64,000 bases of DNA, taken from IMG/VR virus record IMGVR_UViG_3300003154_000001; one strand, given 5' to 3'. Origin of the DNA: a virus. The notes under the pieces were generated by a model. That model was not told where the DNA came from. It made no database searches and saw only the letters and a list, made by a program, of their open reading frames with translations. The position numbers were made by a program, and so were the translations under genes. Numbering within the stretch: the first letter of the stretch is position 1; each line of letters begins with the position of its first letter. Shown here one piece after another: positions 3,693 through 40,641 of the stretch.

Positions 3693-3766
3693 TGGTAGCG
3701 GGTAGCAGAGTTGCACTGCTTACTAAAGGATATGAGCCTTTCGTGTTGCTGTTACACCAACCCGCA
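3693..3766 (-). tRNA. tRNA-Met-like (anticodon CAT), 74 nt with encoded CCA
   Basis: - Hand-folded cloverleaf: TGCGGGT TG GTGT AACAGCA ACAC G AAAGG CTCATAT CCTTT AGTA AGCAG TGCAACT CTGCT ACCCGCT A CCA.
- U8, A14, A21, U33, A37, C56 and A58 are present.
- Atypical points: T1:T72 mismatch, no GG in the D-loop, T-loop TGC instead of TTC. Confidence 0.5.
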
Positions 3767-4849: not shown

Positions 4850-5146
4850 TTACTTATTTACTCTTTTCTTCCAATGTCCTCTTGAATGTCCACTACTTTG
4901 TTTAGTAGCTTTCTCATATTCTTCTATAAGAATATCTTGTTCGCTGTCAAAATAAGAGGTAGCACATTCTAAAGTATTTTCAGACGCTATAAAATCCTTA
5001 TTATTTCCAAATGCACCAACTAAATAAGTAGTCGAGATTTCTCCTGCGACATTCACTCCAAATCCTAATATTTGCTTTATTTTTCCTACTTCACAAGTTA
5101 AATGGCATCTAACTATATCGCCTTGCTTAAACTTACTCTTACCCAT
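4850..5146 (-). CDS. hypothetical protein, KFxxGDI-motif family
   Basis: N-terminus MGKSKFKQGDIVRC matches the start of ORFs 8246..8536 and 8764..9075. Confidence 0.6.
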   Translation of the reverse strand: MGKSKFKQGDIVRCHLTCEVGKIKQILGFGVNVAGEISTTYLVGAFGNNKDFIASENTLECATSYFDSEQDILIEEYEKATKQSSGHSRGHWKKRVNK

Positions 5147-5622
5147 TCTGGCTTACCTCTTTTTGTCCATTTAGGAGTTCTCTTGTCGGTTTCCCACCTA
5201 GCATTTAAATAATTTTTGTATGCTTCAGGAGTATCAGTAATATGTTTAAATGAAATGCCTTTTTCTTTATTAGTAGTGCAGTTACAGAATGAGCTTCCCC
5301 CTCTACTTGGAATATAGTACTGCCCTAAAACAATTTGTAAAGCAAAGGTAGAGCATTTATGAGTTCTATTAAATCTGTAATTATACTCTGCTATTAAATG
5401 AATAAAATGTTGCATTAACCATTCATAATTTCCTTGACTTGATGAAGCCCATTTAACTACTGGATGATTTAGATGTGTTGGCTTATAAAAGCCCTTATGT
5501 CCATTAATCCAAATTGCCGTACTAAGTATCTGTGCTGACTCTAAAATCATTTTAATTAGGCGTTTATCATCTAAAGCTATGGCACTTAAATGGGGGTCTG
5601 GATTAGTGACAAAAATATTCAA
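5113..5622 (-). CDS. conserved phage protein of unknown function
   Basis: 169-aa ORF. I recognise the N-terminal pattern NIFVTNPDP..SA.ALDDKRLIKMILESAQILSTA as a recurrent phage family but cannot name its function from memory. Confidence 0.6.
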   Translation of the reverse strand: MNIFVTNPDPHLSAIALDDKRLIKMILESAQILSTAIWINGHKGFYKPTHLNHPVVKWASSSQGNYEWLMQHFIHLIAEYNYRFNRTHKCSTFALQIVLGQYYIPSRGGSSFCNCTTNKEKGISFKHITDTPEAYKNYLNARWETDKRTPKWTKRGKPEWVRVSLSKAI

Positions 5623-9596: not shown

Positions 9597-9961
9597 TCCT
9601 TTTCCTTATAAACTGTACTAACTATTTGCTTATTGTGTTCATAATTCACTAAATTAAGTAAGTTGATATACCCTTGTAACTTTTGAATTGCTGAAAAAAT
9701 ATCTTTAGCGTAATTATATTTCAATAAATGCCAACCTGAATGTATATCTGATATTCGTCCTAATACCCATGACTTTTCAAATGTATAAGGTTCTTCTGTT
9801 GCCTCAACAATATATGTGATTTTATCCTCTTTATTATAACCATACCTATTTCTATATAATTGTAATGAGTAATATGATACAGTAGTGTCTGTAACTTCCG
9901 AGATAAGATAATAATTTATTCCCCACACATAGATTTGTCCTGCTTCTAATTTTTTAGTCAT
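9593..9961 (-). CDS. hypothetical protein (weak KFxxGDI-like N-terminus)
   Basis: N-terminus MTKKLEAGQIYVW. Confidence 0.6.
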   Translation of the reverse strand: MTKKLEAGQIYVWGINYYLISEVTDTTVSYYSLQLYRNRYGYNKEDKITYIVEATEEPYTFEKSWVLGRISDIHSGWHLLKYNYAKDIFSAIQKLQGYINLLNLVNYEHNKQIVSTVYKEKE

Positions 9962-11163
9962 TTATCGCCCCTTACTCTAATAAATACGGGATGCCGAATT
10001 GACTTGTCGGCAGTTATTTGCATCCCTTTAACTTCAATAACCTTACCTACCATCTTATTTCTGTTCTTCCAAAATTCCTGTCTTTCTTCGTCTGTATATC
10101 CACTTCCTACCCCAACTTCTACCCCGTTATAATCAACTAAAAACTTACCTAACATACCTTGAAACTTACCTTCACCCTCTACAAATCCTGTTATTGTTAA
10201 GTCCTCTGTAATACTAGGCTTAAGTTTTGACATTATCCCTGATGAAAGGGTAACTCTTTTCCATTGATACAATCCATTAGGGTCTTTTAGCATTAGCCCC
10301 TCAAACTTCAAATCAAGAGCATTTTTAAAATGAGCTTCAACAATTTCTTTGGTTCGGGCTATTTTCATTCCCACAACTTTAATAAAAGCATGTGAAATAA
10401 ATTTTATAGTATTATATCTGTCTTGATAAGTGAGCTTACAACTCTGTTTCTTCCAATCACTTTCGGGCATACCATCAAATATGTAAAACTTTATGTGGTC
10501 TGGTACTTCTTTATCTTCCGAATTAAGTATTGACGCAATTGTATTAAAGTCTGCTTCGTGGGAGTATAATTCCCCGTCAAGGACTAAACTTGTAGTTAAC
10601 TTAAGAGCCTGTATGTTCTTATTTCTAATAGGCTTGCCATTACGCCCCATAAAACCAATAGAAGGAATATAAATAGCTCTAAAGCCATCTAACTTAGGCT
10701 GTACCAATACAGGATACTTTACTTCGTTTAAATCCGGCTGTTTATTGTCGGCTAACATAACATCAAAACTCGGTATGCAATTATCAAATGCTCTATTGAT
10801 TATATGCGTTCCTACTCCAATAGGTTTACGGGTCAATGCCTTTTCAAGCCATCCGTCTTTATCAACTTCATCTAATACCGCCCTAGCTGTATGTATTGCC
10901 TTGTGACCTGTTATAGTTCTTGTTTCAATTAACTCTACTAACTTTAGAAATTTATCAAAGCCAACTGAATGTGAAAAGCCTACCGTCTTATTGGGGTCTG
11001 CTTTCTTTGGGAGCTTATTAACATAAAACACTCTATATGGATTGCTCGCTATATCCAAATAAGCCCGTAGCTCAATGGAGTCATACTTCTTAAGTATTAC
11101 TTCCTTCTCTTTTAAACTGTCCGTCTTATTCAGTTCTTCTAAACATTTAAAGAGATTGTTCAA
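9958..11163 (-). CDS. lig: ATP-dependent DNA ligase
   Basis: Adenylation motif I QPKLDGFRA, motif III LVLDGELY, motif IV FYIFDG, motif V EGLMLKD, plus an OB-fold-sized C-terminus. TTG start lies behind AGGAG. Confidence 0.85.
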   Translation of the reverse strand: MNNLFKCLEELNKTDSLKEKEVILKKYDSIELRAYLDIASNPYRVFYVNKLPKKADPNKTVGFSHSVGFDKFLKLVELIETRTITGHKAIHTARAVLDEVDKDGWLEKALTRKPIGVGTHIINRAFDNCIPSFDVMLADNKQPDLNEVKYPVLVQPKLDGFRAIYIPSIGFMGRNGKPIRNKNIQALKLTTSLVLDGELYSHEADFNTIASILNSEDKEVPDHIKFYIFDGMPESDWKKQSCKLTYQDRYNTIKFISHAFIKVVGMKIARTKEIVEAHFKNALDLKFEGLMLKDPNGLYQWKRVTLSSGIMSKLKPSITEDLTITGFVEGEGKFQGMLGKFLVDYNGVEVGVGSGYTDEERQEFWKNRNKMVGKVIEVKGMQITADKSIRHPVFIRVRGDK

Positions 11164-13130: not shown

Positions 13131-14573
13131 TCATTCCTCATCCCCTTCGTGCTTCATCTTAATTACGTTCCCAAATTTTACCTGTTTCTTAAAGTCTGCT
13201 ACATCATAACCATTCTTTGTAAGCACCCAAAGTACAGGCATCGGGGGCTTTTTCAAATTGAAGTCAAAGTATCCGTCTGTAAGTATAACAACTGCATCAT
13301 ACCCTTGCTTCTCTGCAAATCTAAGCCATGACTTTGCACAAGTACCGCCTCTACCACTTACCTTAAAATCTTTAGGCTTAAGTTTCCGCTTCATCTTTTG
13401 GACTTCATGAATTTCAGTATCACCAACAAAGTATTCAACACTAGCCATTTTTGTATTGAATATACGATTTATCTCACCGCCAAATACCTGTAAATCTTTA
13501 TCATAGATTGAGCCTGATGAGTCAACTCCTACCCCAAGATTAAGTTTATAATCGCTCTTTTGCCCTTCATAAGTTATTCCAAATCTCCTTGAGGGTCTTT
13601 TACGAGTATTCTTTCTTAATACTTGAGTAGCGTGTTGCACCCATTTTCTAAACTCGGACTTCCAATTTAATTTTGTCGAAAGAAACTTCAATATATTTTC
13701 TTTAAATTCAGAAGGAAGATTACCAAACGCTTGCGGAGCTTTATCTTTTGCTTCCCGTATCATTCGTTTCAGTTCTTCATCAAGAATTTGTGAAGTTTGA
13801 CCATTTACCGTTTCCCATTTTTCATGACTACCATTACCAAAATCAAACTTAACTTTACCTTCCTTAATATCCTTCTTTAATTGCTCCAATTCTTCGGGAG
13901 TAAGATTAGAAGTAAGCTCTCCTGTCTTTGGATTGAATGTTACTTGTTTCTCTCCTTTACCGCCCTTACCAAACTGTTTCTGCATTTTCTTTTGAAGCTC
14001 TTTATCCTTTGTCACTCTGTCATAATAATACTCGGCTGACTTACACCTTTCTAAACCATATTGTTCGGGAAGTAAACAAGTACAACACTTTCCATTTTTG
14101 TCGGCAGGGGGCAATTGCTTTTCAACTTCATCTTCGGGTATTCCATTTTCCTCTGCAATTTTCTTTTTCAGTTCTTCTCTATTGAATGAGGGAAGGTTCT
14201 CAATGTAACAATTGATTGCCATATCAGCCCCAATATTCCAGAACATAGGGTTCTTATTCTTAGCTCTCTGTAAGTGGTCATTGAGAAGGTGATACAGTTC
14301 ATGCTTTACAATTGCAACCGCTTCATTAGAGTTAAGCTCGGAAAAGAAGAACGGATTAACAAGTAGATGATACCTGTTATTAATTGCACACACGCAAGCT
14401 GTCGGAATTTCCAAAGATACTTGTCTATTCAACATCTGTACTAAATGCCCTAAGAACGCATGGCTTTTCAATAGACTGAAAACGGAAGATGCTAACAATT
14501 CTTGTGTTCTCTGTACAGCTTCTTCTATTTTCTTTTCAATCTCTTTTATGTCTATTTTTGTCAATTCGTTCAT
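13131..14573 (-). CDS. VWA-domain protein with an N-terminal zincin-like (HExxH) domain
   Basis: VKHELYHLLNDH in the N-terminal half. MIDAS-type DSSGS (LGVGVDSSGSIYD) in the C-terminal half. This is the DUF2201-like architecture. Adjacent to a MoxR-type ATPase. Confidence 0.75.
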   Translation of the reverse strand: MNELTKIDIKEIEKKIEEAVQRTQELLASSVFSLLKSHAFLGHLVQMLNRQVSLEIPTACVCAINNRYHLLVNPFFFSELNSNEAVAIVKHELYHLLNDHLQRAKNKNPMFWNIGADMAINCYIENLPSFNREELKKKIAEENGIPEDEVEKQLPPADKNGKCCTCLLPEQYGLERCKSAEYYYDRVTKDKELQKKMQKQFGKGGKGEKQVTFNPKTGELTSNLTPEELEQLKKDIKEGKVKFDFGNGSHEKWETVNGQTSQILDEELKRMIREAKDKAPQAFGNLPSEFKENILKFLSTKLNWKSEFRKWVQHATQVLRKNTRKRPSRRFGITYEGQKSDYKLNLGVGVDSSGSIYDKDLQVFGGEINRIFNTKMASVEYFVGDTEIHEVQKMKRKLKPKDFKVSGRGGTCAKSWLRFAEKQGYDAVVILTDGYFDFNLKKPPMPVLWVLTKNGYDVADFKKQVKFGNVIKMKHEGDEE

Positions 14574-14582
14574 TTTTCCTCT

Positions 14583-14765
14583 TTACTTTTTAATCCAAAG
14601 GTCAGGATTGTTAGGCATTAAACTTAGCCCTTTTTCAATCAATAACTTTCCAAAAGTTTTCCATGCAATTTCTATCGCCTCTCGAATATACAGAGTTTCT
14701 ACATCAGCTTTATAACTGTCGCAAGATACCTCTATATACTTCTTTGCAAATTCTTCATAAGTCAT
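14583..14765 (-). CDS. hypothetical protein
   Basis: 60-aa ORF lying between the ATPase and VWA genes. Confidence 0.5.
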   Translation of the reverse strand: MTYEEFAKKYIEVSCDSYKADVETLYIREAIEIAWKTFGKLLIEKGLSLMPNNPDLWIKK

Positions 14766-15913
14766 TTGCTTTTCTTTCCTTTCTTTGTGTCCTTGCCTTG
14801 CTCAATCTTATCAAGGTTCATCAAGGAATTATAAAGTTTCTTTGCCAGTTCATTACATTTATGCTCTTTATTGGTAGTCGTAGCAAGAATAGCATCTACC
14901 AATGCAGGGTAAGTTTCAACTATCTTTGTAGCCCCTACATAACTAACATCTTCGGCAATATCCGTCAAGAAGGTGAGAAGGTTTCTAAACTGTTTTTCAT
15001 TACCAACAACTTCTTTTTCTTTAAAGGTTTTCTTATCAAAAAGTTCCTCTACTGCCTGTTTCTGTTCGGGTATTCTTGCTTCCTCAACCATTTTGGCTAC
15101 AATCTTTCTGATAGAGTCATAATCATTAAGTATCTTTGTAGCGTCAATCTTAGCATAGCTTGACCGTCTATATTCCTCAAACTGCACCGCCCCTGTCGCT
15201 CCAATTAGCCCCGTAGCCACATCAAGTAAACAATCATTAGTTATCTTCATTTCATCCATCGCTTCAATCATTCTCGATAGCATAGTCCACCCTCTACGGG
15301 AAGGCTTTATAATTTCCAAATCAAGCCCTGTATTTTTTACTTCGAGCATCTTAGGCTGATGAACGATAAATCCCACTACATCTTTTCTAACACCTGTATT
15401 ATTACTAAACTTAATCCATTCATCTGTCGAAGGAGTCAATGAAATGTGGCAAAATCTACCTAGCAAAGCAGGGTCAATACTTGTTACATCATAATCATCA
15501 TCCGCAGGGTTAGTAGCAACAACTATACTTGCTCCTTTGGGAAGTATATAATGGTTCATTATTTGCCTATTCAAGACAAGCTGAAATACACAATTCAACA
15601 CATCTGGTCTGGCTCTGTTAAGCTCATCAAGAAATATAATGCCCTGCCAATCAGGGTCTTGAGGAAGAAAACTTGACATCAAAAATTGAGCATATTTCTG
15701 CCCCTTGTCATTAACCGCTTCAATTGGAAGCCCAAGCCAATCCCCTGCCTCTGTCAATGCGGAGCGAATATCAATAAAATTAATACCCTCATCTTTGGCA
15801 ACTTGAGAAACAGCTTCACTCTTGCCTACTCCATGACTACCCCATAGCCAAATGCCTATGTTAGCCTTACGCCCTGCCTTAATAATCTTCTTTGCAGTTT
15901 CTATACTTGCCAT
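14762..15913 (-). CDS. MoxR/AAA_5-type AAA+ ATPase (CobS/NorQ-like)
   Basis: Walker A GSHGVGKSE, Walker B IIFLDELNRA, then VVATNP (sensor 1 region). Confidence 0.85.
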   Translation of the reverse strand: MASIETAKKIIKAGRKANIGIWLWGSHGVGKSEAVSQVAKDEGINFIDIRSALTEAGDWLGLPIEAVNDKGQKYAQFLMSSFLPQDPDWQGIIFLDELNRARPDVLNCVFQLVLNRQIMNHYILPKGASIVVATNPADDDYDVTSIDPALLGRFCHISLTPSTDEWIKFSNNTGVRKDVVGFIVHQPKMLEVKNTGLDLEIIKPSRRGWTMLSRMIEAMDEMKITNDCLLDVATGLIGATGAVQFEEYRRSSYAKIDATKILNDYDSIRKIVAKMVEEARIPEQKQAVEELFDKKTFKEKEVVGNEKQFRNLLTFLTDIAEDVSYVGATKIVETYPALVDAILATTTNKEHKCNELAKKLYNSLMNLDKIEQGKDTKKGKKSK

Positions 15914-25005: not shown

Positions 25006-25033
25006 ATTTTACTCTTTTAAATCCCCTTGTCAA
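25006..25033 (-). promoter_or_regulatory. sigma70-type promoter (leftward): TTGACA-N16-TAAAAT
   Basis: Minus strand reads TTGACAaggggatttaaaagagTAAAAT, upstream of ORF 24779..24967. Confidence 0.5.
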
Positions 25034-25563
25034 GTTTTATTTTCAATTTTCAATACTGTTATTTGTTTTTTACAAGTTTTGCATACTTGAATATATTTCA
25101 ATTTTCTATATGCTTTAAATTCAAAATTGCAACATTTATAAAGATAATAAAACCTTTTTAGATTAATAATGTTAAAATCAGGGTATAAATGCTTGAATTT
25201 AACTATATTGACGTTAATTAATGGAGTGCCTAGCATTTTAGCATAGTTTTGAAATATATAGCCGTGACTTGGAATATAGTTAATTCTTGCTATATTATAA
25301 CCATATTCCCGATATACCATAAGATGCGCAATTTCATGCAATAAAACGTCAATCCAAAATTGTTTAGAATTATTAATATAGCTAAGTGAAATATAAACAT
25401 ACTTTTCAAGATAACCTTTTTTAGTGCTTATATATGCTTGTGCAATAACGTGACTTGTCTTTTTAAATTTAATCTCAAAGTCATTAAAACCATGTTTATT
25501 AAGTAATTCCTTTGCTAACATTTCAATTTGACTAATTTTATCTTTTTTATCAATAATATCCAC
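25030..25563 (-). CDS. SprT-like zinc metalloprotease
   Basis: LLHEIAHLMVY (HExxH) plus a C-terminal zinc ribbon CCNFEF...CKTCKKQ. GTG start. Confidence 0.65.
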   Translation of the reverse strand: MDIIDKKDKISQIEMLAKELLNKHGFNDFEIKFKKTSHVIAQAYISTKKGYLEKYVYISLSYINNSKQFWIDVLLHEIAHLMVYREYGYNIARINYIPSHGYIFQNYAKMLGTPLINVNIVKFKHLYPDFNIINLKRFYYLYKCCNFEFKAYRKLKYIQVCKTCKKQITVLKIENKT

Positions 25564-26239: not shown

Positions 26240-26512
26240 TTAGCAATCAAATTTGATTTTATCAAGTTTTAAGGCTATTTTTAACCATGCCTTGACAAGA
26301 TAATCACTATCTTGCCAGTTACTTTCTACATGGCTTGCCTTATGGTTAGCAATATCGCTTAGTGTTTCAAGCGTATTGTCAATGCCTAATACATCAATGA
26401 TTGCTTCAATAACATGGCTTGCAAGGTTATATTGATTAACCTTGTCAAGTTTTTGCGCCTCAAGTAAATCATAAACCATGCCATAATAATCTAAATAACT
26501 TGACTGTTTCAT
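26240..26512 (-). CDS. hypothetical protein
   Basis: 90-aa ORF. Leader TTAACCAAAGGGGTTAGT precedes the ATG. Confidence 0.55.
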   Translation of the reverse strand: MKQSSYLDYYGMVYDLLEAQKLDKVNQYNLASHVIEAIIDVLGIDNTLETLSDIANHKASHVESNWQDSDYLVKAWLKIALKLDKIKFDC

Positions 26513-26712
26513 ACTAACCCCTTTGGTTAAGGTTTATTAAATTGTCAAAGAGCCACTAACTTAATATATCACTTGCCTTGAATGATAGCAAGGTATATTC
26601 TAACTACTAACTGCATTATGTTATAGATAGTAACCATATACATTTAATCTAATAGTAATGTCAAATAACCTAATAAGCAATATACGCTATCTAATGTCAA
26701 ATAACTGGTTTA

Positions 26713-26871
26713 TTATCTCTTGCTAGTTAGTTCTAATTTGAATGAATAATCTTTAATCTTATCCAATACATTGACTTTGGCTAACGCTTTAATTAACTTA
26801 GCTTGCCTCATAGCCTTAACCTTTTGCCTTTGCCTGTATGCCTCTATTATTCTTTTGATTGCCTGCATCAT
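26713..26871 (-). CDS. 52-aa basic hypothetical microprotein
   Basis: MMQAIKRIIEAYRQRQKVKAMRQAKL... Weak call, with no clear SD. Confidence 0.3.
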   Translation of the reverse strand: MMQAIKRIIEAYRQRQKVKAMRQAKLIKALAKVNVLDKIKDYSFKLELTSKR

Positions 26872-26881
26872 AGTATTAACC

Positions 26882-27082
26882 TTATTGCTTATTTACTTCA
26901 TTAATTGCTTGCCTTAACGCCTGTAATAACGCCTTGCTTGCCTTTACATTTGACTTTGGTTGATTATCTTGCCTTGCTATTAACTTGCCTTCCCTTGCGT
27001 CAATTATTGGATAGCTATTGACTTGCTTGCTTGCCTTTGCCTTATCCAATATAGCGTTTATTTGTTTATTGTTTAATTTCAT
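26882..27082 (-). CDS. hypothetical protein; first gene of the leftward arm
   Basis: 66-aa ORF next to the divergent control region. Confidence 0.5.
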   Translation of the reverse strand: MKLNNKQINAILDKAKASKQVNSYPIIDAREGKLIARQDNQPKSNVKASKALLQALRQAINEVNKQ

Positions 27083-27771
27083 ACCTATATTGATTGCATA
27101 CCTTATGCCAAGTTTATAAATTTATTATTGCCATGTTATCAATGACTTAACTTTACGCTATGCGACAACTAGCTTGAAAATTGACAACTAAAGTTTACTA
27201 GTCTAAAAATAATCCGTATTATTCAATTAATCCAATATGTTAGCATGTAACAAAAGTTAACACTAGCAGGGAACTAAAGTTACCCTAACAAGTCAATAAT
27301 ATCAATATGTTATATGATTATATAGTTATATCAATAGGTTATACTCTATTGCTACATGGTACGGTTATTGCATACGTTATACACGTTATATAATAGAGTA
27401 GTAGCATACCATACACTACACTATGTTACCATACATTATATTACATTAATATTAATATGTTATATAGCTTATTAGTCCCTTGCATATTCCATGCCATTGT
27501 ACAAACTTGGCCAAAAGTATATTTCAAAATATTATTGTACATTGTAGTTCAATGGTATATCTATTGCATGCTAGATATATAACTACATTACTATATAACT
27601 AATAGCATTACATTAACATACATATATGGTCATTACAATACAATACATTACATTAGAATAGGATATAATACATATAAGGGATACGGTATAAATAGAATAT
27701 ATAGAGGTCCACCGGTAGATTTAGCACAAAGTAGTTTTTACTGGGAGTAACAATTATTACCTAAATAAATC
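27083..27771. repeat. repeat-dense non-coding divergent region (candidate origin or control region)
   Basis: No ORF of 60 aa or more. Motifs: AATATGTTA x3 (27233, 27303, 27454), ATTGCAT(A/G)C x3, CATTACA(T/A)T x4, many GTTATA, and GCATACCATAC, which is also at 22369. Confidence 0.6.
27113..27142 (-). promoter_or_regulatory. candidate leftward promoter TTGATA-N18-TATAAA
   Basis: Minus strand reads TTGATAacatggcaataataaattTATAAA. The -10 element ends about 30 nt upstream of the ATG at 27082. Confidence 0.4.
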
Positions 27772-27800
27772 TTGACTTTAGACCTATTTTATGATATAAT
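27772..27800 (+). promoter_or_regulatory. near-consensus sigma70 promoter (rightward): TTGACT-N17-TATAAT with TGn extension
   Basis: cTTGACTttagacctattttaTGaTATAAT. It is followed by GAGGAG and the ATG at 27824. Confidence 0.75.
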
Positions 27801-27823
27801 GGAATTATAAAGTAGAGGAGAAC

Positions 27824-28144
27824 ATGCTATATCTAGAGATAGAAGAAGTATTACTAGAAGAACTAAATAATTATATAAGTTCAGGAAATATAAAAACAGT
27901 AGAAGAGCATAAGATAGGTAAAGCGTTAGAGATTTATAGCATTACCTGGATTGATCATGTTCAAGCTTATGCAATTAAATATAAAACAGAGAATCAATTA
28001 GGAACATGTACTATAACCTACTTACCTGAGTACATAATAGAAAATATGATAAAAGAATCAAGGTATGAAGAACATGAACAGGAAATCCTTTGGAAGTATT
28101 TTGAGGACTCCAACTCGGATCCTAGAGAAAAGGAAGAAAAGTAG
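27824..28144 (+). CDS. small acidic protein; first gene of the rightward arm
   Basis: 106-aa ORF with GAGGAG 6 nt upstream. Acidic C-terminus. Confidence 0.6.
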   Translation: MLYLEIEEVLLEELNNYISSGNIKTVEEHKIGKALEIYSITWIDHVQAYAIKYKTENQLGTCTITYLPEYIIENMIKESRYEEHEQEILWKYFEDSNSDPREKEEK

Positions 28145-28444
28145 ATGAACGATCATCCCATAGAGATGCGAATAAATGATTATATTTCTCAATATTTCTT
28201 ACTACATGGAGTATTACCTGAAGAAGTTAATCTGCTAGTGTCGGAATATAGAGAATTTAGGAGAGAATTAGAGAGAAAGTTGCCAGTTTATGAACAAAAT
28301 CGCTCATTTGGACTGCCTACAGTAATAACTTATCATGGAATGCCTATCAAAGTGGCACCATACAGTGATATTAAGACCTTTTGGGAAGAAGAAAACGAAG
28401 AAATTGAGCTTTTAGAGGCATTTGACAATGAAATTAACAGTTAG
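28145..28444 (+). CDS. small acidic protein, acidic-tail family
   Basis: Ends EEENEEIELLEAFDNEINS. The ATG abuts the upstream TAG. Confidence 0.6.
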   Translation: MNDHPIEMRINDYISQYFLLHGVLPEEVNLLVSEYREFRRELERKLPVYEQNRSFGLPTVITYHGMPIKVAPYSDIKTFWEEENEEIELLEAFDNEINS

Positions 28445-28712
28445 AATCACTAATTTTGACAAATATTATGAGAGAGAATTGCACTACGGAGGATCTGTGG
28501 CTACCATTCAAACTCATAGACTATTAAAAGATGCTGAACAGGCTATTTTAGAGATGAGCACAATGGCTTTAGTTGATGAAAATCAAAATAAAATCCCATT
28601 TATACTTCCTGAAGAGCAAAAAGTTGAAAAAGAAGCTCAAATAGAGATACAAAACGATGAATTAATTGAGGAATTTGATAATGAGAGTAAAAATTCAGAT
28701 AGTGGAAGATAA
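28428..28712 (+). CDS. small acidic protein, acidic-tail family
   Basis: The ATG is embedded in the GCATTTGACAATGAA of the previous tail. Ends IQNDELIEEFDNES... Confidence 0.6.
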   Translation: MKLTVRITNFDKYYERELHYGGSVATIQTHRLLKDAEQAILEMSTMALVDENQNKIPFILPEEQKVEKEAQIEIQNDELIEEFDNESKNSDSGR

Positions 28713-28944
28713 TTTTAAGATCTATGACCGTCCTAGAGTAGATAAAGAAGCAGACTTTGCTTTTTTAGGTCACTTAAAAGATAATAATATCCACGTTTTA
28801 TCTAATTACTTGCAAAAACAACTAATAGAGTGGCAAGATGGCGATAAAGAGGCTGCAAGTAAAGATATATTCATGTACGAAGCACAAAACGATGAAATGA
28901 TTAGGGAATTTGAGTATGAAACTAGTGGTAATGATAGAAAATAA
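28681..28944 (+). CDS. small acidic protein, acidic-tail family
   Basis: The ATG is embedded in GAATTTGATAATGAG. Ends AQNDEMIREFEYET... Confidence 0.6.
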   Translation: MRVKIQIVEDNFKIYDRPRVDKEADFAFLGHLKDNNIHVLSNYLQKQLIEWQDGDKEAASKDIFMYEAQNDEMIREFEYETSGNDRK

Positions 28945-29149
28945 AGGTAAAGAATATACCTACACAGTGGATTTTATTAAGGAAATTGGACATTATTACT
29001 CCTCAGATATAGCACAAGAGGCAGAAAGACTCTCACATAAGGCATTTACTGATGCTTTTATGGAAGAGGTCTTCGGAGTACCTTCTAAAACAGCTATAGA
29101 GGCAGAAACGGAAAACGACGAAAACATCGAAGAATTTGACAAAAAGTAG
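28916..29149 (+). CDS. small acidic protein, acidic-tail family
   Basis: The ATG is embedded in GAATTTGAGTATGAA. Ends TENDENIEEFDKK. Confidence 0.6.
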   Translation: MKLVVMIENKGKEYTYTVDFIKEIGHYYSSDIAQEAERLSHKAFTDAFMEEVFGVPSKTAIEAETENDENIEEFDKK

Positions 29150-29150
29150 T

Positions 29151-29402
29151 ATGGATAAGAAATATAAAGAATATCATAAGATGCTAGAGGAATTTGAGAA
29201 GAATACTAAAAAACAGACTTCTAATGAAGAAAAGAAACGAAAAGAAGAAATTCAAGTTATATATGAAGAGCTATATCAGTATATGAAAAATAGGTGGAAT
29301 TTACCAGAGTGGTTAGAAGAAGAGGAAAAACAGATAGAATTGGCCGAAGAATTTGAAAAAGAGAAGAAAGTCTCAGGTCCCGAAAAAGACCCTAAAAAGT
29401 AG
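29151..29402 (+). CDS. small charged protein, acidic-tail family (divergent)
   Basis: The ATG is 1 nt after the upstream TAG. Contains EEEKQIELAEEFEKE. Confidence 0.55.
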   Translation: MDKKYKEYHKMLEEFEKNTKKQTSNEEKKRKEEIQVIYEELYQYMKNRWNLPEWLEEEEKQIELAEEFEKEKKVSGPEKDPKK

Positions 29403-29543
29403 GGCTGTAATAAAATGTAGTAGGTTTGAGCATTACTTTTTATTCAAGAATGCATCCAAGGCATTAAAACTGTAGTCAGATACCTATTAAATCCATTTTA
29501 TATACTTATAATCAATGTAACCTGCTGAACTATATAGAAATAT

Positions 29544-29729
29544 ATGAATAATCCTAATGTTAAATATAAACTAATACTTTCTGGTAGAAGAAGTGGTAAG
29601 TCATTTTTAACTAATTACTTTGCTCAATGGAATGATATAGATCCCAATCAAATAACATTTGAGAATGAAATCCAGGAGATAGAGGCTATAAACGAATATG
29701 ATCGCTTACACGATCAAATAGACCGCTAA
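29544..29729 (+). CDS. small protein with a P-loop-like GRRSGKS and an acidic-tail-like motif
   Basis: LILSGRRSGKSF resembles the TerL Walker A (ACGRRFGKSL). ENEIQEIEAINEYD resembles the family tail. Confidence 0.5.
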   Translation: MNNPNVKYKLILSGRRSGKSFLTNYFAQWNDIDPNQITFENEIQEIEAINEYDRLHDQIDR

Positions 29730-29793
29730 AGACGGTACTATACCGCCCAAAATCCGGTCGTCGCCCCCAGGCGACATAAAAAAGGGAGTAGTA

Positions 29794-30003
29794 ATGAAAA
29801 GAGTAGATGCGTTGTTATGTGAATTTAGAACACTAATAAATAGTACAGAACCAAATTCAGTAGATCTTATAGGGGCCTTAAAAGAAATGATCGAGGACCT
29901 GGTTTACGAGGAACGCCTGCGGGCCGTGAATTTAATGACTTTAAAAGGCATAGAATTAGATCGAGAAACTATTTTACATATATTAGGAGATTCCAATGGG
30001 TGA
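29794..30003 (+). CDS. hypothetical protein
   Basis: 69-aa ORF. AAGGGAG lies upstream. Confidence 0.55.
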   Translation: MKRVDALLCEFRTLINSTEPNSVDLIGALKEMIEDLVYEERLRAVNLMTLKGIELDRETILHILGDSNG

Positions 30004-30223
30004 AAATATTAATTATTTCAAGGTAGTGCATGCTTCCTTGGCAGATTTAGAAGACAGACTAAATACATTACGAAAAGAGGGTTATAATATTGTTCAAGTT
30101 CTTCCAACAGGTAGGGCTGATAATACTGAATTTGCTATAGTAACTATATTATCCCCTCATAATCCAAAATTTTTGGAATTGGTAAAAGCAGAAACTGAAC
30201 CACAGGAGAAGAAAAATGAATAA
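29996..30223 (+). CDS. hypothetical protein
   Basis: 75-aa ORF with an overlapping junction. Confidence 0.55.
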   Translation: MGENINYFKVVHASLADLEDRLNTLRKEGYNIVQVLPTGRADNTEFAIVTILSPHNPKFLELVKAETEPQEKKNE

Positions 30224-30512
30224 AAAGTGGATATTAATGGGAATTTTAGTCTTTGGCCTATTATTTGGTAAGCCTGTTATTACTTTAGTACAATCAAAGG
30301 TAACCTCTCTAACCAATGATAAAAATACTGTTAGAATTGAGTGTATAACCGCCTTAAAACAACTTTGTGATGAAAATATCGAACAATGTCGCATAGATTG
30401 CTGTGATTACCATGGAAAAGATCCAAAAACCTGTGTTTTAACGATGGATGAGATTAATGAGTGGATAGACTATATGATTGATGAATGTATGGCAGAGTCA
30501 GAAAACTCATAA
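30216..30512 (+). CDS. exported or membrane-anchored Cys-rich protein
   Basis: N-terminal hydrophobic stretch WILMGILVFGLLFG, then seven Cys residues. Confidence 0.55.
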   Translation: MNKKWILMGILVFGLLFGKPVITLVQSKVTSLTNDKNTVRIECITALKQLCDENIEQCRIDCCDYHGKDPKTCVLTMDEINEWIDYMIDECMAESENS

Positions 30513-30943
30513 AAAAATAAAATCTAATTAAATTCACTAGTTAACTACTTTTAGTAATTATTTTATAAAATTCTTTATACAAATGTGTCCAATACTAGCG
30601 AATAAAGTGATATATATAGGAGCCTTCTATCTGTAAGGCTCATTATATCTATTTTGGCTCATTTGGGCAGAATAGAACACTTATATCACCATCCGTACAA
30701 TTAACATGGCGGATACATTATATTAATCTGGTAATGCCAGTTTATATATTAAATATTAAGTCGTCTAATCAAGTTGGTGTTTATGGTAAAAATAAAGAAC
30801 ATCTTAAATGTTAGACTTGCTACAGATACTATCCCTCCAATTTTAAATCTTCTTTTTCACTTAAAAGTTAATAGATACACCAAGACTAATAGATTAGGCG
30901 AGCGTAACTTATATTTTATCAAGTCTGACAATTAAACTTAATT

Positions 30944-31025
30944 GGAGGACCGGGAGGTTTACGAACGGACTTCGGTTCGTTCATGCAGTTCCTCCCATAC
31001 TTAGAGCAATCTAAGTACTTCCTCC
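30944..31025 (+). ncRNA. GC-rich three-way-junction RNA element (unclassified)
   Basis: - P1: GGAGGA (30944-49) pairs with TCCTCC (31020-25).
- P2: GGGAGG (30952-57) pairs with CCTCCC (30991-96). It encloses an 8-bp hairpin GAACGGAC-UUCG-GUUCGUUC (30963-82).
- P3: ACTTAG (30999-31004) pairs with CTAAGT (31011-16).
- It lies in a 570-bp ORF-poor gap and is followed by a terminator hairpin. Confidence 0.5.
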
Positions 31026-31034
31026 TCGTCTGTT

Positions 31035-31070
31035 GGGCTGGGGTCTTTCTGACCCCAGTCCTTCAGATTT
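31035..31070 (+). terminator. intrinsic-terminator-like hairpin
   Basis: GGGCTGGGGTC-tttct-GACCCCAGTCC (one G:U pair), followed by TTCAGATTTTAT. Confidence 0.55.
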
Positions 31071-31085
31071 TATGTAAGGATAAAC

Positions 31086-31277
31086 ATGATAGTAGATAAA
31101 TTAAAGAAAATAGGCATTCATGCCGCAGTAATTCTTGTTATGGCATTAGGGGTATTTCTAAGTTCTAGTTTTATTTCTATTCTAAAATGGGACTATTTGA
31201 AGGTTTGTTCAGCAATGCTTCTTGGAGCATATGCATTGAAGCCTTTGGCCGATTGGATTTGTAAAAAGGTATTGTAA
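31086..31277 (+). CDS. small two-helix membrane protein (holin-like topology; function unproven)
   Basis: Hydrophobic stretches HAAVILVMALGVFLSSSFI and CSAMLLGAYAL. Confidence 0.5.
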   Translation: MIVDKLKKIGIHAAVILVMALGVFLSSSFISILKWDYLKVCSAMLLGAYALKPLADWICKKVL

Positions 31278-31732
31278 TGGCAAAGATTGAAGAAAAATCT
31301 AAAAAACCTAAAAAGTATCGTAGCGACCAAGATGCCTATATAAATATGGCTCCTACTAAGAAGCCAGACAAGTTGTTTGGGCAAGCAGTAATTAAAAGTG
31401 GTTCTGCTATAGCAACACAGCCAGAACCTAAGTCTAAAAATCCTGTTAAAATAGATTATAAAGAAACATTGAATAATACTAAAGTTTATGAAAATAAAGT
31501 CAATGTTCATCTTGATATGGATGAAGAAAGATTCCCAAAAGAATCTAAAGTTCCTAATAAAAGAAAGTATAATGAAAAAGGGGAATATATAAAGCATAAA
31601 CAAGTAAAGTTAGAATCCGATACTCAAAAAGATCCGAAAGAGCTTACAACTCATTCAATGGTTCAAGTAATGAAAGAACAAGCTTTATCTAATCCTAATA
31701 GAAAAAATGGAAACAAGCGACTTAAAAAGTAA
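31277..31732 (+). CDS. lysine-rich basic protein
   Basis: 151-aa ORF. The ATG overlaps the upstream TAA (TAATG). Confidence 0.55.
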   Translation: MAKIEEKSKKPKKYRSDQDAYINMAPTKKPDKLFGQAVIKSGSAIATQPEPKSKNPVKIDYKETLNNTKVYENKVNVHLDMDEERFPKESKVPNKRKYNEKGEYIKHKQVKLESDTQKDPKELTTHSMVQVMKEQALSNPNRKNGNKRLKK

Positions 31733-32260: not shown

Positions 32261-33742
32261 ATGCCGGTAGGATTTGGTGAACCTCTTAAAATACACGAAT
32301 TGAATATCGAAGGTTTAGTAGAAGAATTTGCTAAACGAGGTTTGACTACCACCACTTCTAAAATTCAAACTTTACATCCTGCACAAAAAGAAATTTGTAG
32401 TGATGAGGCCAGATTTAAAGTATTAGCATGTGGCAGACGATTTGGTAAGTCATTATTTGTTACTTTGATTGCAATGGCAGTTGCATTACAGCCAGGACGT
32501 AAAATTTGGATAGTAGGAGATTCATATGAAATAACTGATAGAGTATTTGCGGAACTCTATCATTTACTTGTTAATGAAATGAAACTTGCGGTTGCTTCTA
32601 AGGGAGGCGGAGCAAGTAAATTACATAGATATATCAATCTTCCTAATGGAAGCGTTATACAAGGAAAGTCATGTGAAAATAGAAATTCTCTAGTTGGTGA
32701 AGCAATTGATTTACTTATTTGGGATGAGTGCAGCTTAGTATCAAATGGAAAAGATATTTGGAACCAGGAATTAAGAGCCACATTAGCAGATAGAGAAGGA
32801 TCCGCAATCTTTATATCAACTCCTCGTGGACGTAATCATTTTTATGATTTTTATCTCTTAGGCAAGAATGGTATAGATTTAAGACAGCAAAAAGCAGAGG
32901 GCAGGCAGTTAACTGATATTGAAGAAGTAACATCAATGTGGTCAGGATTTCAATTTAGTTCATATTGTAATACTATTGAAAATGGAGGATTTCTTAAAAG
33001 ATCAGAATTTGATTCTATGCGGCTTTCTATGCCAGATGTTAAATTTAGACAAGAAGTTATGGCAGATTTTACCGCAGTAGCAGATAGTGCATTTCCAGAA
33101 TTTAAACAAGATGCTCAAGTAAATGATTATGATTTTAATCCAATTCTTCCAGTTTATATAGGAATGGATTTTAACTATCAGACTCCTTGTACCACGCTAT
33201 ATGTTCAGATGGATCCGAATCAAAATATATTAATCTTTGATGAGTATCATCCATTAGATGCACATACAACGGTACATCAACAAGCGAAACAATTATTAGA
33301 ACAAGATCAAAAATTAGGGAATAAAATTGAAATTGTTGCTGCTGACGTTTCAGGAGCACAAAAAAGTTTAAATGGTCGTAGTGCATGGGATGATCTAGCA
33401 GATTGGGGGATTTACCCAGTAGGAAGAAAACAAAAGATAGAAACAGGATGCGATTTAATTAGATTGTGGTGTGCATATCCAAAATTAGATGAAAATGGTT
33501 TACCTGTTTTTGATTCTAAGGGAAATCCAGAAACATATCCCAAATTATTTATTAATAAAAGGTGCAGAAACTTAATCTTAGCATTAGAAGCTGCTAGGGC
33601 ACCTGAAGCACAATCAGGAGTACCAAAAGAAGGTTATAAGAAAGATGGTATAACAGATGGTCCCCTGGATGCATTAAGATATATTCTAGTATATTTATTA
33701 CATGGAACAACACAAGCAGGATTAGTTCCTGCAGGATTATAA
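32261..33742 (+). CDS. terL: terminase large subunit
   Basis: Walker A LACGRRFGKS, Walker B LLIWDE, and a C-terminal nuclease-sized half (GMDFNY...DGPLDALRY). 493 aa. Confidence 0.85.
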   Translation: MPVGFGEPLKIHELNIEGLVEEFAKRGLTTTTSKIQTLHPAQKEICSDEARFKVLACGRRFGKSLFVTLIAMAVALQPGRKIWIVGDSYEITDRVFAELYHLLVNEMKLAVASKGGGASKLHRYINLPNGSVIQGKSCENRNSLVGEAIDLLIWDECSLVSNGKDIWNQELRATLADREGSAIFISTPRGRNHFYDFYLLGKNGIDLRQQKAEGRQLTDIEEVTSMWSGFQFSSYCNTIENGGFLKRSEFDSMRLSMPDVKFRQEVMADFTAVADSAFPEFKQDAQVNDYDFNPILPVYIGMDFNYQTPCTTLYVQMDPNQNILIFDEYHPLDAHTTVHQQAKQLLEQDQKLGNKIEIVAADVSGAQKSLNGRSAWDDLADWGIYPVGRKQKIETGCDLIRLWCAYPKLDENGLPVFDSKGNPETYPKLFINKRCRNLILALEAARAPEAQSGVPKEGYKKDGITDGPLDALRYILVYLLHGTTQAGLVPAGL

Positions 33743-34091: not shown

Positions 34092-34319
34092 ATGTCAGAT
34101 CCAATCCCCAAACTTATTAAATATTGGGGCGGACGCTTTCGCCTGATAATCGAAAATCTTCCTGAATCTATTAGGAACGATAAAGATCTACATGCGAAAG
34201 TATTAATATTAGTACATCATAAATTTAAGAATTATCCGTGGGGAACAATGCTTCCTGAACAAAGACTAGATGAAATTAATAATTATGTATATAGTCTTTT
34301 GGAAGAATATTTTAATTAA
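34092..34319 (+). CDS. hypothetical protein
   Basis: Start moved to the ATG at 34092, directly after the upstream TAA. Confidence 0.55.
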   Translation: MSDPIPKLIKYWGGRFRLIIENLPESIRNDKDLHAKVLILVHHKFKNYPWGTMLPEQRLDEINNYVYSLLEEYFN

Positions 34320-38344: not shown

Positions 38345-39238
38345 ATGCCGAAACCAGGCGACAATCTTAACAAAGTATTTGGAACAAAGGACAAAGATCA
38401 GAAAGCTGCTGAGAACAAAATAGATGAAGTCCAGAAAACAGCGGAAGAAATTGTTGAAAAACTTGATGAAGTAAAAGATGAAATGGCTGCGGAAACTTCA
38501 GAGGTTGAGCCAACTGAAGATTCAGTGGATACAAAAATTGATAAAAAAGACGATCCATATGCAGAATGGACTAAGGAACAACTCGCAAAAGAAATGTCAG
38601 ATGCTCGTAAAGAGGCTGCTAAAAATAGAGTTGCTCTTAAAGAAACAGAAAAGGTTCTTCAGCAAGACTATGATAAGAAGTTGAAAGACCTTGAGCAAAG
38701 ATTCGCACCTTATATTGAACAAGCACAAGAGTATAAGAAAGTTCAAGAAAAAGAAGCGGATAAAAAGCGCAGCTTAGAGGAAAAACTTGCACATAGAGAA
38801 ACTAGAGTCAATGAATTGGTGCAGGAAAAAGAAGAAATAGAAGCCAAGTTCCAAGAAGAGAAAATAAAACTTCAAGCAGAGCTTGAAAAGAAGAGTGCCG
38901 AATTAGAGGCGTACAATAGTTACTGGAAGGAACAGTTAACAAAAGAGTTAACAGAAGTTCCCCAGAAACACAAGAAGTTGGCGGAACTAATTGTCAAGGG
39001 AGCAGGAGAAGATCCTAAAGCTGGCCTTGAAGCAATTAGAGAAGCAAAAACCAACGATTTGTTTGGAACCAAGAAAGTAACTGTATATAATGCTACTCCA
39101 ACCGCTAAAGATGGAGCAAGGTTGGATGCAGCCAAAGCACAGAAGGCCAATTCTTCTACAGCGACAACTCCAAAACAAAAGATAGGAGAAGGTCTTAAAG
39201 GATGGAAAGCCAAACAAAAAAGTAGGATTCTTGGATAA
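38345..39238 (+). CDS. scaffolding protein (by composition and position)
   Basis: 297 aa, E/K-rich with coiled-coil character. Immediately upstream of the capsid gene. Confidence 0.6.
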   Translation: MPKPGDNLNKVFGTKDKDQKAAENKIDEVQKTAEEIVEKLDEVKDEMAAETSEVEPTEDSVDTKIDKKDDPYAEWTKEQLAKEMSDARKEAAKNRVALKETEKVLQQDYDKKLKDLEQRFAPYIEQAQEYKKVQEKEADKKRSLEEKLAHRETRVNELVQEKEEIEAKFQEEKIKLQAELEKKSAELEAYNSYWKEQLTKELTEVPQKHKKLAELIVKGAGEDPKAGLEAIREAKTNDLFGTKKVTVYNATPTAKDGARLDAAKAQKANSSTATTPKQKIGEGLKGWKAKQKSRILG

Positions 39239-39273: not shown

Positions 39274-40641
39274 ATGGCTCAAGTTATTACACTTTCAGAA
39301 GCTGCCAAGCTGTCAAACAATCTACTTGTTGAAGGCGTTATTGAAGATATTATAACGATAAATGAGTGGTATAGACATCTCCCATTCGTGGTGTTTGAGG
39401 GTCTTGCCTACACATTTACAAGAGAAAAAACGATAGCTAAGGCTGCGTTTGCAGCTCCGGGAACGAACCTTAATGATCTGAAGTATCAGAAGGGTGCAAC
39501 GATGCAGAATGTTAACGTATCGTTGGCTGCAATAATCGGCGACATAATCATGGACGGACAAATCGAAGATCAGTTGTCAGATCATAATGATCAGCTTCAG
39601 GTTCAGATTTCTTCAAAGGCGAAAGATATCGCCCGTACGTACATGAATGCGATAATTAATGGTAAGAGATATCCTGGTGGTCCACTTGTTCAGTCGAACA
39701 ACGGTCCGATAGGCATCGAAGCTAAGTTTGATGGTATGAAAGCCATCCTTGATGCAGAACAGGGTAACGTAGACGACGTAAATCATCCGTTCTATAATGC
39801 GGGTTCTTCAACCCAGACATTAGAATTGATTGAGGACGATCCTGCGTCAACAAGGTCAGGTAGATACGGTAGAGTATTCACTCTTGAAGATCTTGATAGT
39901 TTGATTGATAGAGTTACTACTGGAAAGCCCGATTTCTTAATGATGCATGCTAGAGACATCAGAACCTTGAGAGTTCTCTTGAGGAATACTGGTGGTGGAA
40001 CTGATGCATATCAGATTCAGCAGGTTGGCCTTGGTAATATGAAACCCATGCTGATGTACCAGGAAATCCCGGTGTTCAGAAATGATTTCATTTCTAAGAC
40101 AGAACCCGTTCATCTAATCGACAGTGGCGTAGTGGCTGCGGCTGGTGCTGCTTCTATTACTACTGCTGAAGATTATTCAGGCGGATTGCCTGCGGCTCTC
40201 ACAGCCGGTATAGCTGCTGGCACAGCAGTTTGTATCGTCAGGGGCGATGATCTGATATTGAGAAAGTATATAATCACTGCGGCAACAGTAGCGAATCCTT
40301 CAGTATTGACGGTTACCGCTACAGGGTCATTCCTTGATGTTGAAAACAACATTCTTGAAGCACAGGTTGCACCAAACTTTGCAGGACTAAATCTTGCTGG
40401 TAAGGACTATGCGATATATGAAAGATCCGATGGATCAGAAATATACGTTGGTCGTTGGGGCGAAATGGAAGGCGTTGTTGGATTTACATCAGCTAATGAT
40501 GCTGGCGTAGTGTTTGAATTTGTTGGTCCGAGAGAAAACGAGAATGCCTATCAATATAGGTTGAAATGGTATTGCGGATTCGATCTGTACAACAGACTAG
40601 CATTAGCTAGGATCAAATATGCTCTTCCGTTAGGAGCGTAA
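39274..40641 (+). CDS. major capsid protein
   Basis: 455 aa. Strong RBS AAGGAGA, higher GC and codon bias than its neighbours, follows the scaffold gene, and is followed by a strong hairpin. Confidence 0.7.
   Translation: MAQVITLSEAAKLSNNLLVEGVIEDIITINEWYRHLPFVVFEGLAYTFTREKTIAKAAFAAPGTNLNDLKYQKGATMQNVNVSLAAIIGDIIMDGQIEDQLSDHNDQLQVQISSKAKDIARTYMNAIINGKRYPGGPLVQSNNGPIGIEAKFDGMKAILDAEQGNVDDVNHPFYNAGSSTQTLELIEDDPASTRSGRYGRVFTLEDLDSLIDRVTTGKPDFLMMHARDIRTLRVLLRNTGGGTDAYQIQQVGLGNMKPMLMYQEIPVFRNDFISKTEPVHLIDSGVVAAAGAASITTAEDYSGGLPAALTAGIAAGTAVCIVRGDDLILRKYIITAATVANPSVLTVTATGSFLDVENNILEAQVAPNFAGLNLAGKDYAIYERSDGSEIYVGRWGEMEGVVGFTSANDAGVVFEFVGPRENENAYQYRLKWYCGFDLYNRLALARIKYALPLGA

Follow-up and report, generated by a model that had tools for sequence, protein, structure and literature searches.

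In a 64,000-nucleotide stretch of DNA from an uncultured tailed phage (IMG/VR record IMGVR_UViG_3300003154_000001), here called the window, we describe an array of seven small acidic genes (o1 to o7) whose products carry one constant acidic tail near the C-terminus. The window belongs to a metagenomic contig of 113,444 bp (AMWB02), and the array is located exactly at the point where the two arms of the genome diverge. As judged by sequence comparison, its architecture is that of a variable body plus a constant tail and not that of a simple array of paralogues, and at many junctions the codons of the tail also supply the Shine-Dalgarno sequence and the start codon of the next gene. What emerges is a genuine and unusual module, confined to a handful of uncultured phages and known from only five or six such genomes. 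Our favoured reading, which we hold with about even confidence, is that these are immediate-early, modular proteins that would be tethered to one putative common partner by an acidic helix that folds on binding.

The σ70-type promoter that heads the array is the sole site in the whole window that combines 11 matches at 12 positions with a 17-nucleotide (nt) spacer and the TG of an extended -10 element. This agrees with the original prediction, made from the sequence alone, that the best σ70-like promoter of the window stands directly in front of these genes. An extended -10 promoter with 11-12 matches of 12 lies upstream of the array in all five genomes that carry it (the window, L092, L096, L217 and L002; Table 1), so that the promoter-proximal position holds for the relatives as well. 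Six open reading frames (ORFs) of 80-106 amino acids and a seventh had been described; with coordinates taken from ATG starts the ORFs are all borne out, and the size range of the six is corrected to 77-106 amino acids. The three next-gene ATGs that had been placed inside motif codons are present at 28428, 28681 and 28916, with gene overlaps of 17, 32 and 29 nt, respectively. The junctions do form direct DNA repeats (35-41 nt, 65-80% identity), and the similar starting peptides quoted for three members are all found, in o3, o4 and o5; the N-termini are not common across the array.

Acidity that had been called extreme proves to be moderate. The isoelectric points (pI) of o1 to o10 run from 4.55 to 5.40 in an unbroken series of acidic proteins, and D and E together make up 16-28% of o1 to o7 (20-23% of o1 to o5). 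These values are nevertheless unusual for this phage: because the median pI of the window is 6.8, the acidity of the array is a local property, and the same median led us to drop a halophile-type, uniformly acidic proteome as its cause.

A constant tail on variable bodies

The tail was defined from 41 sequences aligned on their aromatic residue (position 0), 40 from the five genomes and one from the protein P0011, which is held by a sixth genome fragment. They follow the consensus E(-10)-x-[EQ]-[QN](-7)-[DE]-x-L(-4)-[IW](-3)-[EK]-E(-1)-[FY](0)-[ED](+1), with E(-10) kept in 40 of the 41, E(-1) in 34, Q/N(-7) in 33 and L(-4) in 24. Position 0 is divided between F and Y (20/21), and in every tail 3-22 further residues follow it, the array proteins ending in INS, SGR, DRK, DKK, PKK or IDR. 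The motif had been noticed in five members, with a related one in the seventh; the quoted tails are present, and the count was too low, as all seven proteins carry it. The o1 version (EQEILWKYFED) is recognisable because the relatives c1, c10 and d2 show the same class (LW[EK]EY).

The motif recurs in the array more than chance would predict. The pattern [ILMN][ILA][ER][EA]F[DE] occurs six times in the six frames of the 64 kb, always on the plus strand between 28409 and 29357, and a looser tail pattern is found in 6/7 array genes versus 4/110 other genes. When the tails were shuffled 5000 times with their composition preserved, six matches were never reached; hence, the motif is not an effect of composition. 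On a position-specific scoring matrix (PSSM) built for the tail, real tails score from 7.8 bits upward, with a median of 20.7. An eighth copy, which lies 22 kb from the array on the other arm and contains no embedded start codon, reaches 19.5 bits, and the next best of 16,307 background 9-mers reaches 7.5 bits.

Two other motif-like peptides were noted. A 75-residue protein encoded two genes past the large terminase (34092-34319, plus strand), which ends in ...YVYSLLEEYFN, was considered as a further client of the tail and dropped because array-less relatives keep this end as well and the motif's upstream half is missing. The end is conserved in the array-less L015 and more diverged in L017, and it is probably unrelated to the array motif. 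In o6, a second, N-terminal copy of the core motif (MLEEFE, residues 11-16; 29181-29198) is present and is not kept in the orthologue b6.

In the related genomes, the order of the module is a consensus promoter, 6-12 tail-bearing genes that for the most part overlap or abut, and then o8, o9 and in most cases o10. Between orthologues, the tails are 73% identical versus 45-61% for whole proteins. For instance, b4 (P0004), the orthologue of o4, is 59% identical overall and matches 11 of 12 tail residues; b6 retains LTEEFE; and b7, the orthologue of o7, shows EENEIKDLEAYD and ends, as o7 does, in YDRLHDQIDR. A comparison of the window with L092 gives 45-61% identity for the array genes, 87% for the large terminase and 90% for o8, and by these values the array is evolving faster than either. 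The tail-bearing genes vary in number from 6 to 12, o1 has been lost from L092, where only a 3' remnant survives, and the window has no b2x. These comparisons sustain the view of a diversifying set whose copy number varies between related phages and whose motif is conserved in their homologues.

With the tails removed, the description of the array as 6-7 paralogues does not stand, since most members then show no detectable homology. Among the 48 bodies examined, from the five genomes and P0011, we found eight small groups (one β-β-α family, the o2 family and six pairs) and 19 singletons, the o2 body being the most widely retained (o2, b2, a1, c6 and d6). Within the window, only o3 and o5 match, with o4 marginal; o3 and o5 align over their full length (blastp E = 3e-5), which makes o5 a paralogue of o3, and the similarity between o3 and o4 (E = 1e-3) resides mainly in the tail. 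AlphaFold2 (AF2) models o3 as a β-hairpin plus helix over residues 2-55, with a predicted local distance difference test score (pLDDT) of 70-88, followed by a probably flexible linker (residues 56-73, pLDDT <50) and a low-confidence helix over the tail (residues 65-87). The o2 model (pLDDT 75) consists of an α/β body and a C-terminal helix at residues 76-98 (pLDDT ~70).

The family was not recognised at the outset, and the searches agree. Proteins o1 to o10 gave nothing above noise against Pfam, PHROGs and NCBIfam, a profile of o3, o4 and o5 found nothing among PDB sequences, and Foldseek returned no match for the o3 model in PDB and BFVD (E > 0.4) or for the o2 model in PDB (E > 0.6). Blastn of the region against GenBank phages and tblastn of one tail gave no match, and an Rfam scan of 26500-31500 gave nothing. 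The suggestion that the proteins might act as DNA mimics fares poorly: their charge is moderate, and neither these Foldseek searches nor the Pfam, PHROG and NCBIfam profiles link them to Ocr, ArdA or other mimics. Whole-protein DNA mimicry is therefore not supported.

Coding and initiation signals at the junctions

At most junctions, the tail codons provide a Shine-Dalgarno sequence (GAG-GAA, AGG-GAA or TGG-GA). The next ATG is composed of an xAT codon and the following G, which accounts for the occurrence of N, D, Y or H at +2. In 26 of the 41 junctions, this ATG is offset from the aromatic codon by +1, +4 or +7 nt. Codon usage is tuned accordingly: at position -2, GAG is used 16 times and GAA 5 times, compared with 70 and 162 in the bodies (p = 5e-5), and GG is found in codons -3 to -1 at 20/20 junctions with an ATG 4-13 nt past the aromatic codon versus 5/10 tails without a start (Fisher p = 0.0018), although both statistics overstate the significance because orthologues count as separate observations. 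This tuning supports the earlier view of the embedded ATGs as initiation sites, and these embedded starts suggest that ribosomes pass from one gene to the next. A natural experiment is offered by b5, which has GAG-GAA and an embedded ATG, and o5, which has GAA-GAA and thus neither a Shine-Dalgarno sequence nor an embedded ATG, although its peptide is retained. When accessibility was predicted for the embedded initiation regions (0.52 versus 0.53 when shuffled), no special occlusion or exposure was apparent; as the value equals the shuffled expectation, it gives no evidence for hairpin-gated coupling.

The peptide itself also shows signs of selection. Synonymous codons occur at E(-10), E(-1) and D(-6) in the same ratio as in the gene bodies, L(-4) is encoded by TTA, CTT, TTG and CTA, that is, by both leucine families, and F and Y interchange at position 0. 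The motif is kept without an embedded start in o6, o7, b6, b7, a4, a6, c5 and the gene at 4850-5146, and the offset of the ATG shifts while the peptide stays fixed. The reverse is seen in c12, where the Shine-Dalgarno sequence and ATG are present and the aromatic residue is absent. At the level of sequence, the tail thus shows selection both as protein and as RNA. Regardless of its function, the junctions represent a clean natural case of dual coding, in which one 40-nt stretch serves as peptide, Shine-Dalgarno sequence and start, and the codon choices track which role is in use.

As a side observation, the ATG embedded in the a5 tail opens a 31-codon ORF (L002:6390-6485) that encodes a hydrophobic, membrane-like peptide, MSRNRANRLISWIISVVAAVLLYLYVKTQVK.

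Possible roles of the tail

Because relatives conserve the tail and selection acts on it as protein, docking on a common partner is the best reading of it; the shared short linear tail of the original prediction is real, and its single partner is putative. According to this reading, host RNA polymerase would transcribe the unit at the start of infection, as the promoter suggests, and the embedded starts would let ribosomes move from gene to gene along it. The constant tail would then form a short amphipathic acidic helix, with E, Q/N, L/I and F/Y on one face (positions -10, -7, -4/-3 and 0), that docks every member on one common partner with a basic or hydrophobic groove, of host or phage origin, and the differing bodies would thereby all be delivered to one site. 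In both AF2 models (o2 and o3), the part that holds the tail is predicted to be helical. The position of the array and its evolutionary rate may point to a role in host takeover or anti-defence.

Several points weigh against common docking. The early timing is a prediction from the promoter consensus; the 41 tails include orthologues and are not independent, which makes the p-values optimistic; and short EQ-x-x-LW-x-EY helices are also found in unrelated phage proteins such as terminases, so that such a short motif does not by itself argue strongly for a shared interaction. Moreover, the conserved neighbours o8 (pI 4.7) and o9 (pI 5.3) are themselves acidic and, for that reason, unlikely receptors of an acidic helix. 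If the tail is a docking peptide, the array would clearly exemplify a short linear motif, or "constant region", common to unrelated phage early proteins. It would also offer a single handle to the hub targeted first by this phage lineage on infection, and a rule at the sequence level by which more members could be recognised.

A reading that we consider unlikely gives the tail no protein function and treats it as a by-product of nucleotide-level needs at the junctions, namely an initiation region and a direct repeat; the repeat would let cassettes be gained, lost and shuffled by recombination, and any inserted ORF would inherit the tail. Such a view fits the -2 codons, which are biased to GAG, AGG or AAG, the invariable GG at junctions with a close ATG, the N, D, Y or H found at +2 exactly where ATGs are embedded, and the codons of N(-7) (AAC 12 and AAT 4, versus 23 and 112 in bodies). 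It also fits a tail that is common to unrelated bodies, a gene content that differs at junctions between relatives (b2x and o1 gained or lost), and an apparent tail in the distant relative L003, LKCSK followed by a stop, that is merely an alternate frame of the next gene's MFKV start. However, E(-10) and Q/N(-7) are the best conserved positions even though they lie 22-37 nt upstream of the ATG, beyond a normal initiation region, and conserved residues use synonymous and cross-family codons. The peptide is fixed while the ATG offset varies, complete motifs occur with no start nearby in o6, o7, c5, a6 and the minus-strand gene at 4850-5146, c12 has the initiation region without the aromatic motif, and the strict requirement for F or Y is not a nucleotide requirement. 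A similar dynamic is known from promoter-early stem-loop (PeSL) cassettes, short conserved sequences between the variable early ORFs of T4-like hyperplastic regions, which, like the array repeats, are tied to the gain, loss and replacement of small early ORFs (PMC2839356, PMC4122927). Nevertheless, PeSLs are intergenic promoter-terminator units, whereas the array repeat lies in coding sequence, encodes a peptide together with the next Shine-Dalgarno sequence and ATG, and belongs to genes that all share a single promoter. We give only a very slight chance to the tails being oligomerisation helices that bundle co-translated array proteins into one hetero-complex: the conserved positions (-10, -7, -4/-3 and 0) have a heptad-like spacing, AF2 predicts a helix in the tail region, and coupled translation from one mRNA would favour co-assembly, but a helix of three turns with E and Q/N at its core and a strong negative charge would be repelled in a homotypic bundle, the AF2 confidence for the o3 tail helix is low, and the gene for the eighth copy lies in the other arm, at a distance of 22 kb.

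It is decidedly unlikely, in our estimate, that the tail works as an address label by which the proteins enter the procapsid or virion and are ejected with the DNA; such a label would be the C-terminal counterpart of the T4 capsid-targeting sequence or of the peptides that load cargo into encapsulins. The logic would be that of the T4 internal proteins IPI, IPII, IPIII and Alt, which are diverse, fast-evolving small defence proteins that have one short terminal targeting peptide as their only common feature and thereby one destination (PMC3012670). The array likewise shares its strand with the packaging and head genes; the large terminase lies ~2.9 kb downstream of it and is followed by the portal and major head protein. 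It is separated from the structural genes, however, by a consensus host-type promoter and a terminator-like hairpin, and its proteins are acidic, whereas DNA-embedded internal proteins are usually basic. The T4 targeting sequence is N-terminal, spans ~10 residues, ends in L/I-x-E and is cleaved by the prohead protease, and the T4 proteins are packaged; the array peptide is C-terminal and acidic, stands 3-22 residues from the stop with no prohead-protease or other known cleavage motif after it, and is encoded downstream of a host-type promoter. No homology of the array proteins to any virion protein was found, nor any sequence or fold similarity to the T4 internal proteins, and the eighth copy is in the replication and metabolism arm. 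The T4 internal proteins and PeSL cassettes are the nearest concepts to the array, which lacks the defining features of both. Very improbable, in turn, is that the tail mimics the adaptor-binding part of the host ssrA tag, encoded by transfer-messenger RNA (tmRNA), and so couples early proteins to SspB/ClpXP, which would imply either their timed self-destruction or, with the proteins as decoys, titration of the adaptor. In Caulobacterales, Hyphomonadaceae and Parvularculaceae, the tags read ANDN[FY..]xEE[FY]A[LV]AA (ANDNFAEEFAVAA in the Caulobacterales type), and their core, N-D-x-[aromatic or hydrophobic]-x-E-E-[FY], has the same N-D-x3-E-E-[FY] spacing as tails of the type xQNDExIEEF. Such tags occur in >120 genomes (three confirmed by ARAGORN), and the Caulobacter tag, also given in PMC9393093, outscores 99.98% of phage 9-mers on the tail PSSM. 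The tag ANDNYTEEFALAA is present in two loci of metagenome-assembled genomes with a low guanine-cytosine (GC) content (34-36%, compared with ~33% in the phage), and Proteobacteria are the hosts of all phage relatives of the major head protein. Against this, the resemblance came to light only in hindsight, with many motifs under consideration, and the Caulobacter tag, at 6.4 bits, scores below every real tail. N-D is found in one tail subclass only, [QE]ND..[IL].E[FY], which has the Caulobacterales-tag spacing (o3, o4, o5, b2x, c4, c8, c9, d5 and d8), while others have EQExLWxEY. Nothing in the tags, which end in A-[LV]-A-A at a free C-terminus, corresponds to E(-10), the position conserved best in the tails; no tail ends in LAA, and the ClpX determinant, L/V-A-A at the free carboxyl end, is absent. 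The E. coli tag mismatches the tail PSSM (-13 bits), and the phage host may carry a tag of another type than the Caulobacterales one. A phage-encoded tmRNA was also considered and dropped, as none was found in the window or in nine related loci.

The preferred docking peptide can also be compared with other known systems. The SPO1 gp37-60 module, the T7 class I genes and the T5 pre-early genes are, like the array, small ORFs of unknown fold behind strong host-type promoters and are expressed first. To our knowledge, however, these host-takeover clusters have no shared terminal peptide or serial embedding of starts in a conserved motif. The flexible acidic tails of SSB (DDDIPF) and of T7 gp2.5 and gp4 have a critical aromatic residue and serve as docking sites for several partners. 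Unlike the array motif, which is a 12-residue, helix-like pattern with residues after its aromatic position in 41/41 tails, SSB-type tails sit at the extreme C-terminus and need a free end. Searched against PDB, the tail profile gave only two matches, both non-significant, to alpha-actinin-2 (E = 0.39) and SpoIISB (E = 0.93). The SpoIISB antitoxin (PDB 3o6q chain B) is a small protein whose C-terminal ENERLIDEYKRK resembles the tail; it is otherwise dissimilar to the array proteins and belongs to a Bacillus toxin-antitoxin context.

Genomic setting and relatives

The downstream end of the module is conserved. A GC-rich element of ~50 nt between o7 and o8 is nearly identical at L092:2927-2975 although the flanking genes have diverged; the fold z-score of its hairpin is only -1.6. 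Homologues of o8 are confined to the five array-bearing genomes among 5.8 billion proteins searched, and o8 and o9 homologues follow the array in every one of these genomes. The order array-o8-o9-o10 is kept in L002, L096 and L217, and no o10 homologue was called 3' of the o9 homologue in L091/L092. In a comparison with the Aca regulators of anti-CRISPR operons, o8 and o9 showed no helix-turn-helix match, nor any other match in Pfam or NCBIfam. The early unit probably ends at the terminator-like hairpin 3' of o10, after which ~450 nt (30642-31085) contain no ATG-started ORF of at least 60 amino acids; a TTG-started ORF of 53 amino acids (30774-30935) has a homologue in L091/L092.

The large terminase (32261-33742) has at most ~28% identity to that of any GenBank phage, and a search of one genome per species, made for host inference, found no relative of it. 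Plus-strand genes to the right of 27.8 kb include the large terminase, portal, scaffold (38345-39238) and major head protein (39274-40641). Left of ~27.1 kb, minus-strand genes encode an ATP-dependent DNA ligase (9958-11163), a MoxR-type AAA ATPase (14762-15913) adjoining its VWA-like partner, a putative metallopeptidase of the DUF2201 type (13131-14573), an SprT-like protein (25030-25563) and GP88; a tRNA-Met is located at 3693-3766 in the same arm. Between the two arms, an AT-rich divergent intergenic region of 0.7 kb (27100-27770) contains short direct repeats (ATATCAATATGTTATA three times and TACCATACA-type units) and weaker promoter-like sites. The minimum of the cumulative GC skew falls within it, and the region may be an origin or a regulatory region.

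Profile and exhaustive searches over billions of proteins found the module in four further metagenomic phage genomes and the fragment that holds P0011, and almost nothing outside this tiny clade. Its source metagenomes include AMWB02, JGI 3300048654, SRR28370465 and SRR29278633. The profile of o3, o4 and o5 gave seven matches among 1.84 billion representative proteins, one of which, the 2376-residue repetitive adhesin P0009, was spurious. In IMG/VR, a degenerate DNA scan for QNDExIxEF[DE] returned two chance matches within unrelated proteins, and one for EQ[DE]x[LF]WxEY returned 37 matches, none of them an array, in terminases, portals, a tail-chaperone region and other unrelated families. As both tail variants were scanned and no further array was found, the motif-bearing array is confined to this clade.

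Table 1. Features of the window and of related genomes discussed in the text (aa, amino acids)
Feature	Location or source	Strand	Remarks
Promoter, σ70-type, TTGACT-N17-TG-TATAAT	27772-27800	+	Heads array; 11/12 positions matched
o1	27824-28144	+	106 aa, pI 4.6; tail variant at ~28067-28102
o2	28145-28444	+	99 aa; tail ENEEIELLEAFD at 28391-28426
o3	28428-28712	+	94 aa; ATG inside o2 tail (GAC AAT GAA); tail EIQNDELIEEFD at 28644-28679
o4	28681-28944	+	87 aa; ATG inside o3 tail (GAT AAT GAG); tail EAQNDEMIREFE at 28879-28914
o5	28916-29149	+	77 aa; ATG inside o4 tail (GAG TAT GAA); tail ETENDENIEEFD at 29105-29140
o6	29151-29402	+	83 aa; tail EEKQIELAEEFE at 29322-29357, then basic extension; no gene start within tail
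o7	29544-29729	+	61 aa; after 141-nt spacer; tail EIQEIEAINEYD at 29667-29702; no gene start within tail
GC-rich conserved element	29730-29790	+	Hairpin GTCGCC-CCCA-GGCGAC; between o7 and o8; no U-tract
o8	29794-30003	+	Conserved module-closing gene
o9	29996-30223	+	Conserved module-closing gene
o10	30216-30512	+	Module-closing gene; signal peptide or membrane anchor
Terminator-like hairpin	30620-30641	+	Consensus scan only
Eighth motif copy	4850-5146	-	SH3-like 98-aa protein (MGKSKFKQGDIV...); carries DSEQDILIEEYEK, then basic end
L091/L092	JGI 3300048654, 114.7 kb		Tail genes b2, b2x, b3-b7
L002	IMG/VR, 95 kb		Tail genes a1-a6
L096	Logan, 3.8 kb		c1-c12, 11 with tails
L217	Logan, 64 kb		d0-d10
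SH3-like "MKFKVGD" array	L003:1954-2754	-
SH3-like "MKFKVGD" array	L016:191-2490
SH3-like "MKFKVGD" array	L017:5154-7182
SH3-like "MKFKVGD" array	L019:6030-7839
SH3-like "MKFKVGD" array	L022:155-1572

In two of the related genomes (L096:13-50 and L217:5274-5311), the ATG of the first array gene lies only 6 nt past the -10 hexamer (TAtAAT-gtaagt-ATG), which suggests that the first cistron is leaderless there. The first gene of L217 appears to be frameshifted, with one part at 5309-5422 and d0 at 5385-5558.

More distant relatives, whose large terminases are 40-65% identical, carry arrays of small SH3-like "MKFKVGD" proteins. In one of them, L003, an otherwise AT-rich genome, a GC-rich stretch of ~2.7 kb without clear ORFs (L003:5292-8000) lies upstream of the terminase; it gave no Rfam match at gathering thresholds and no tRNA or tmRNA. 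The "MKFKVGD" arrays lie upstream of the terminase and share its strand, L003 being the exception, with its array on the opposite strand. These arrays have conserved C-terminal tails of their own that are specific to each lineage (LKxLKCSK, TIDYMKRKK or WxEILYG), that of L003 being the alternate reading frame of the MFKV start described above.

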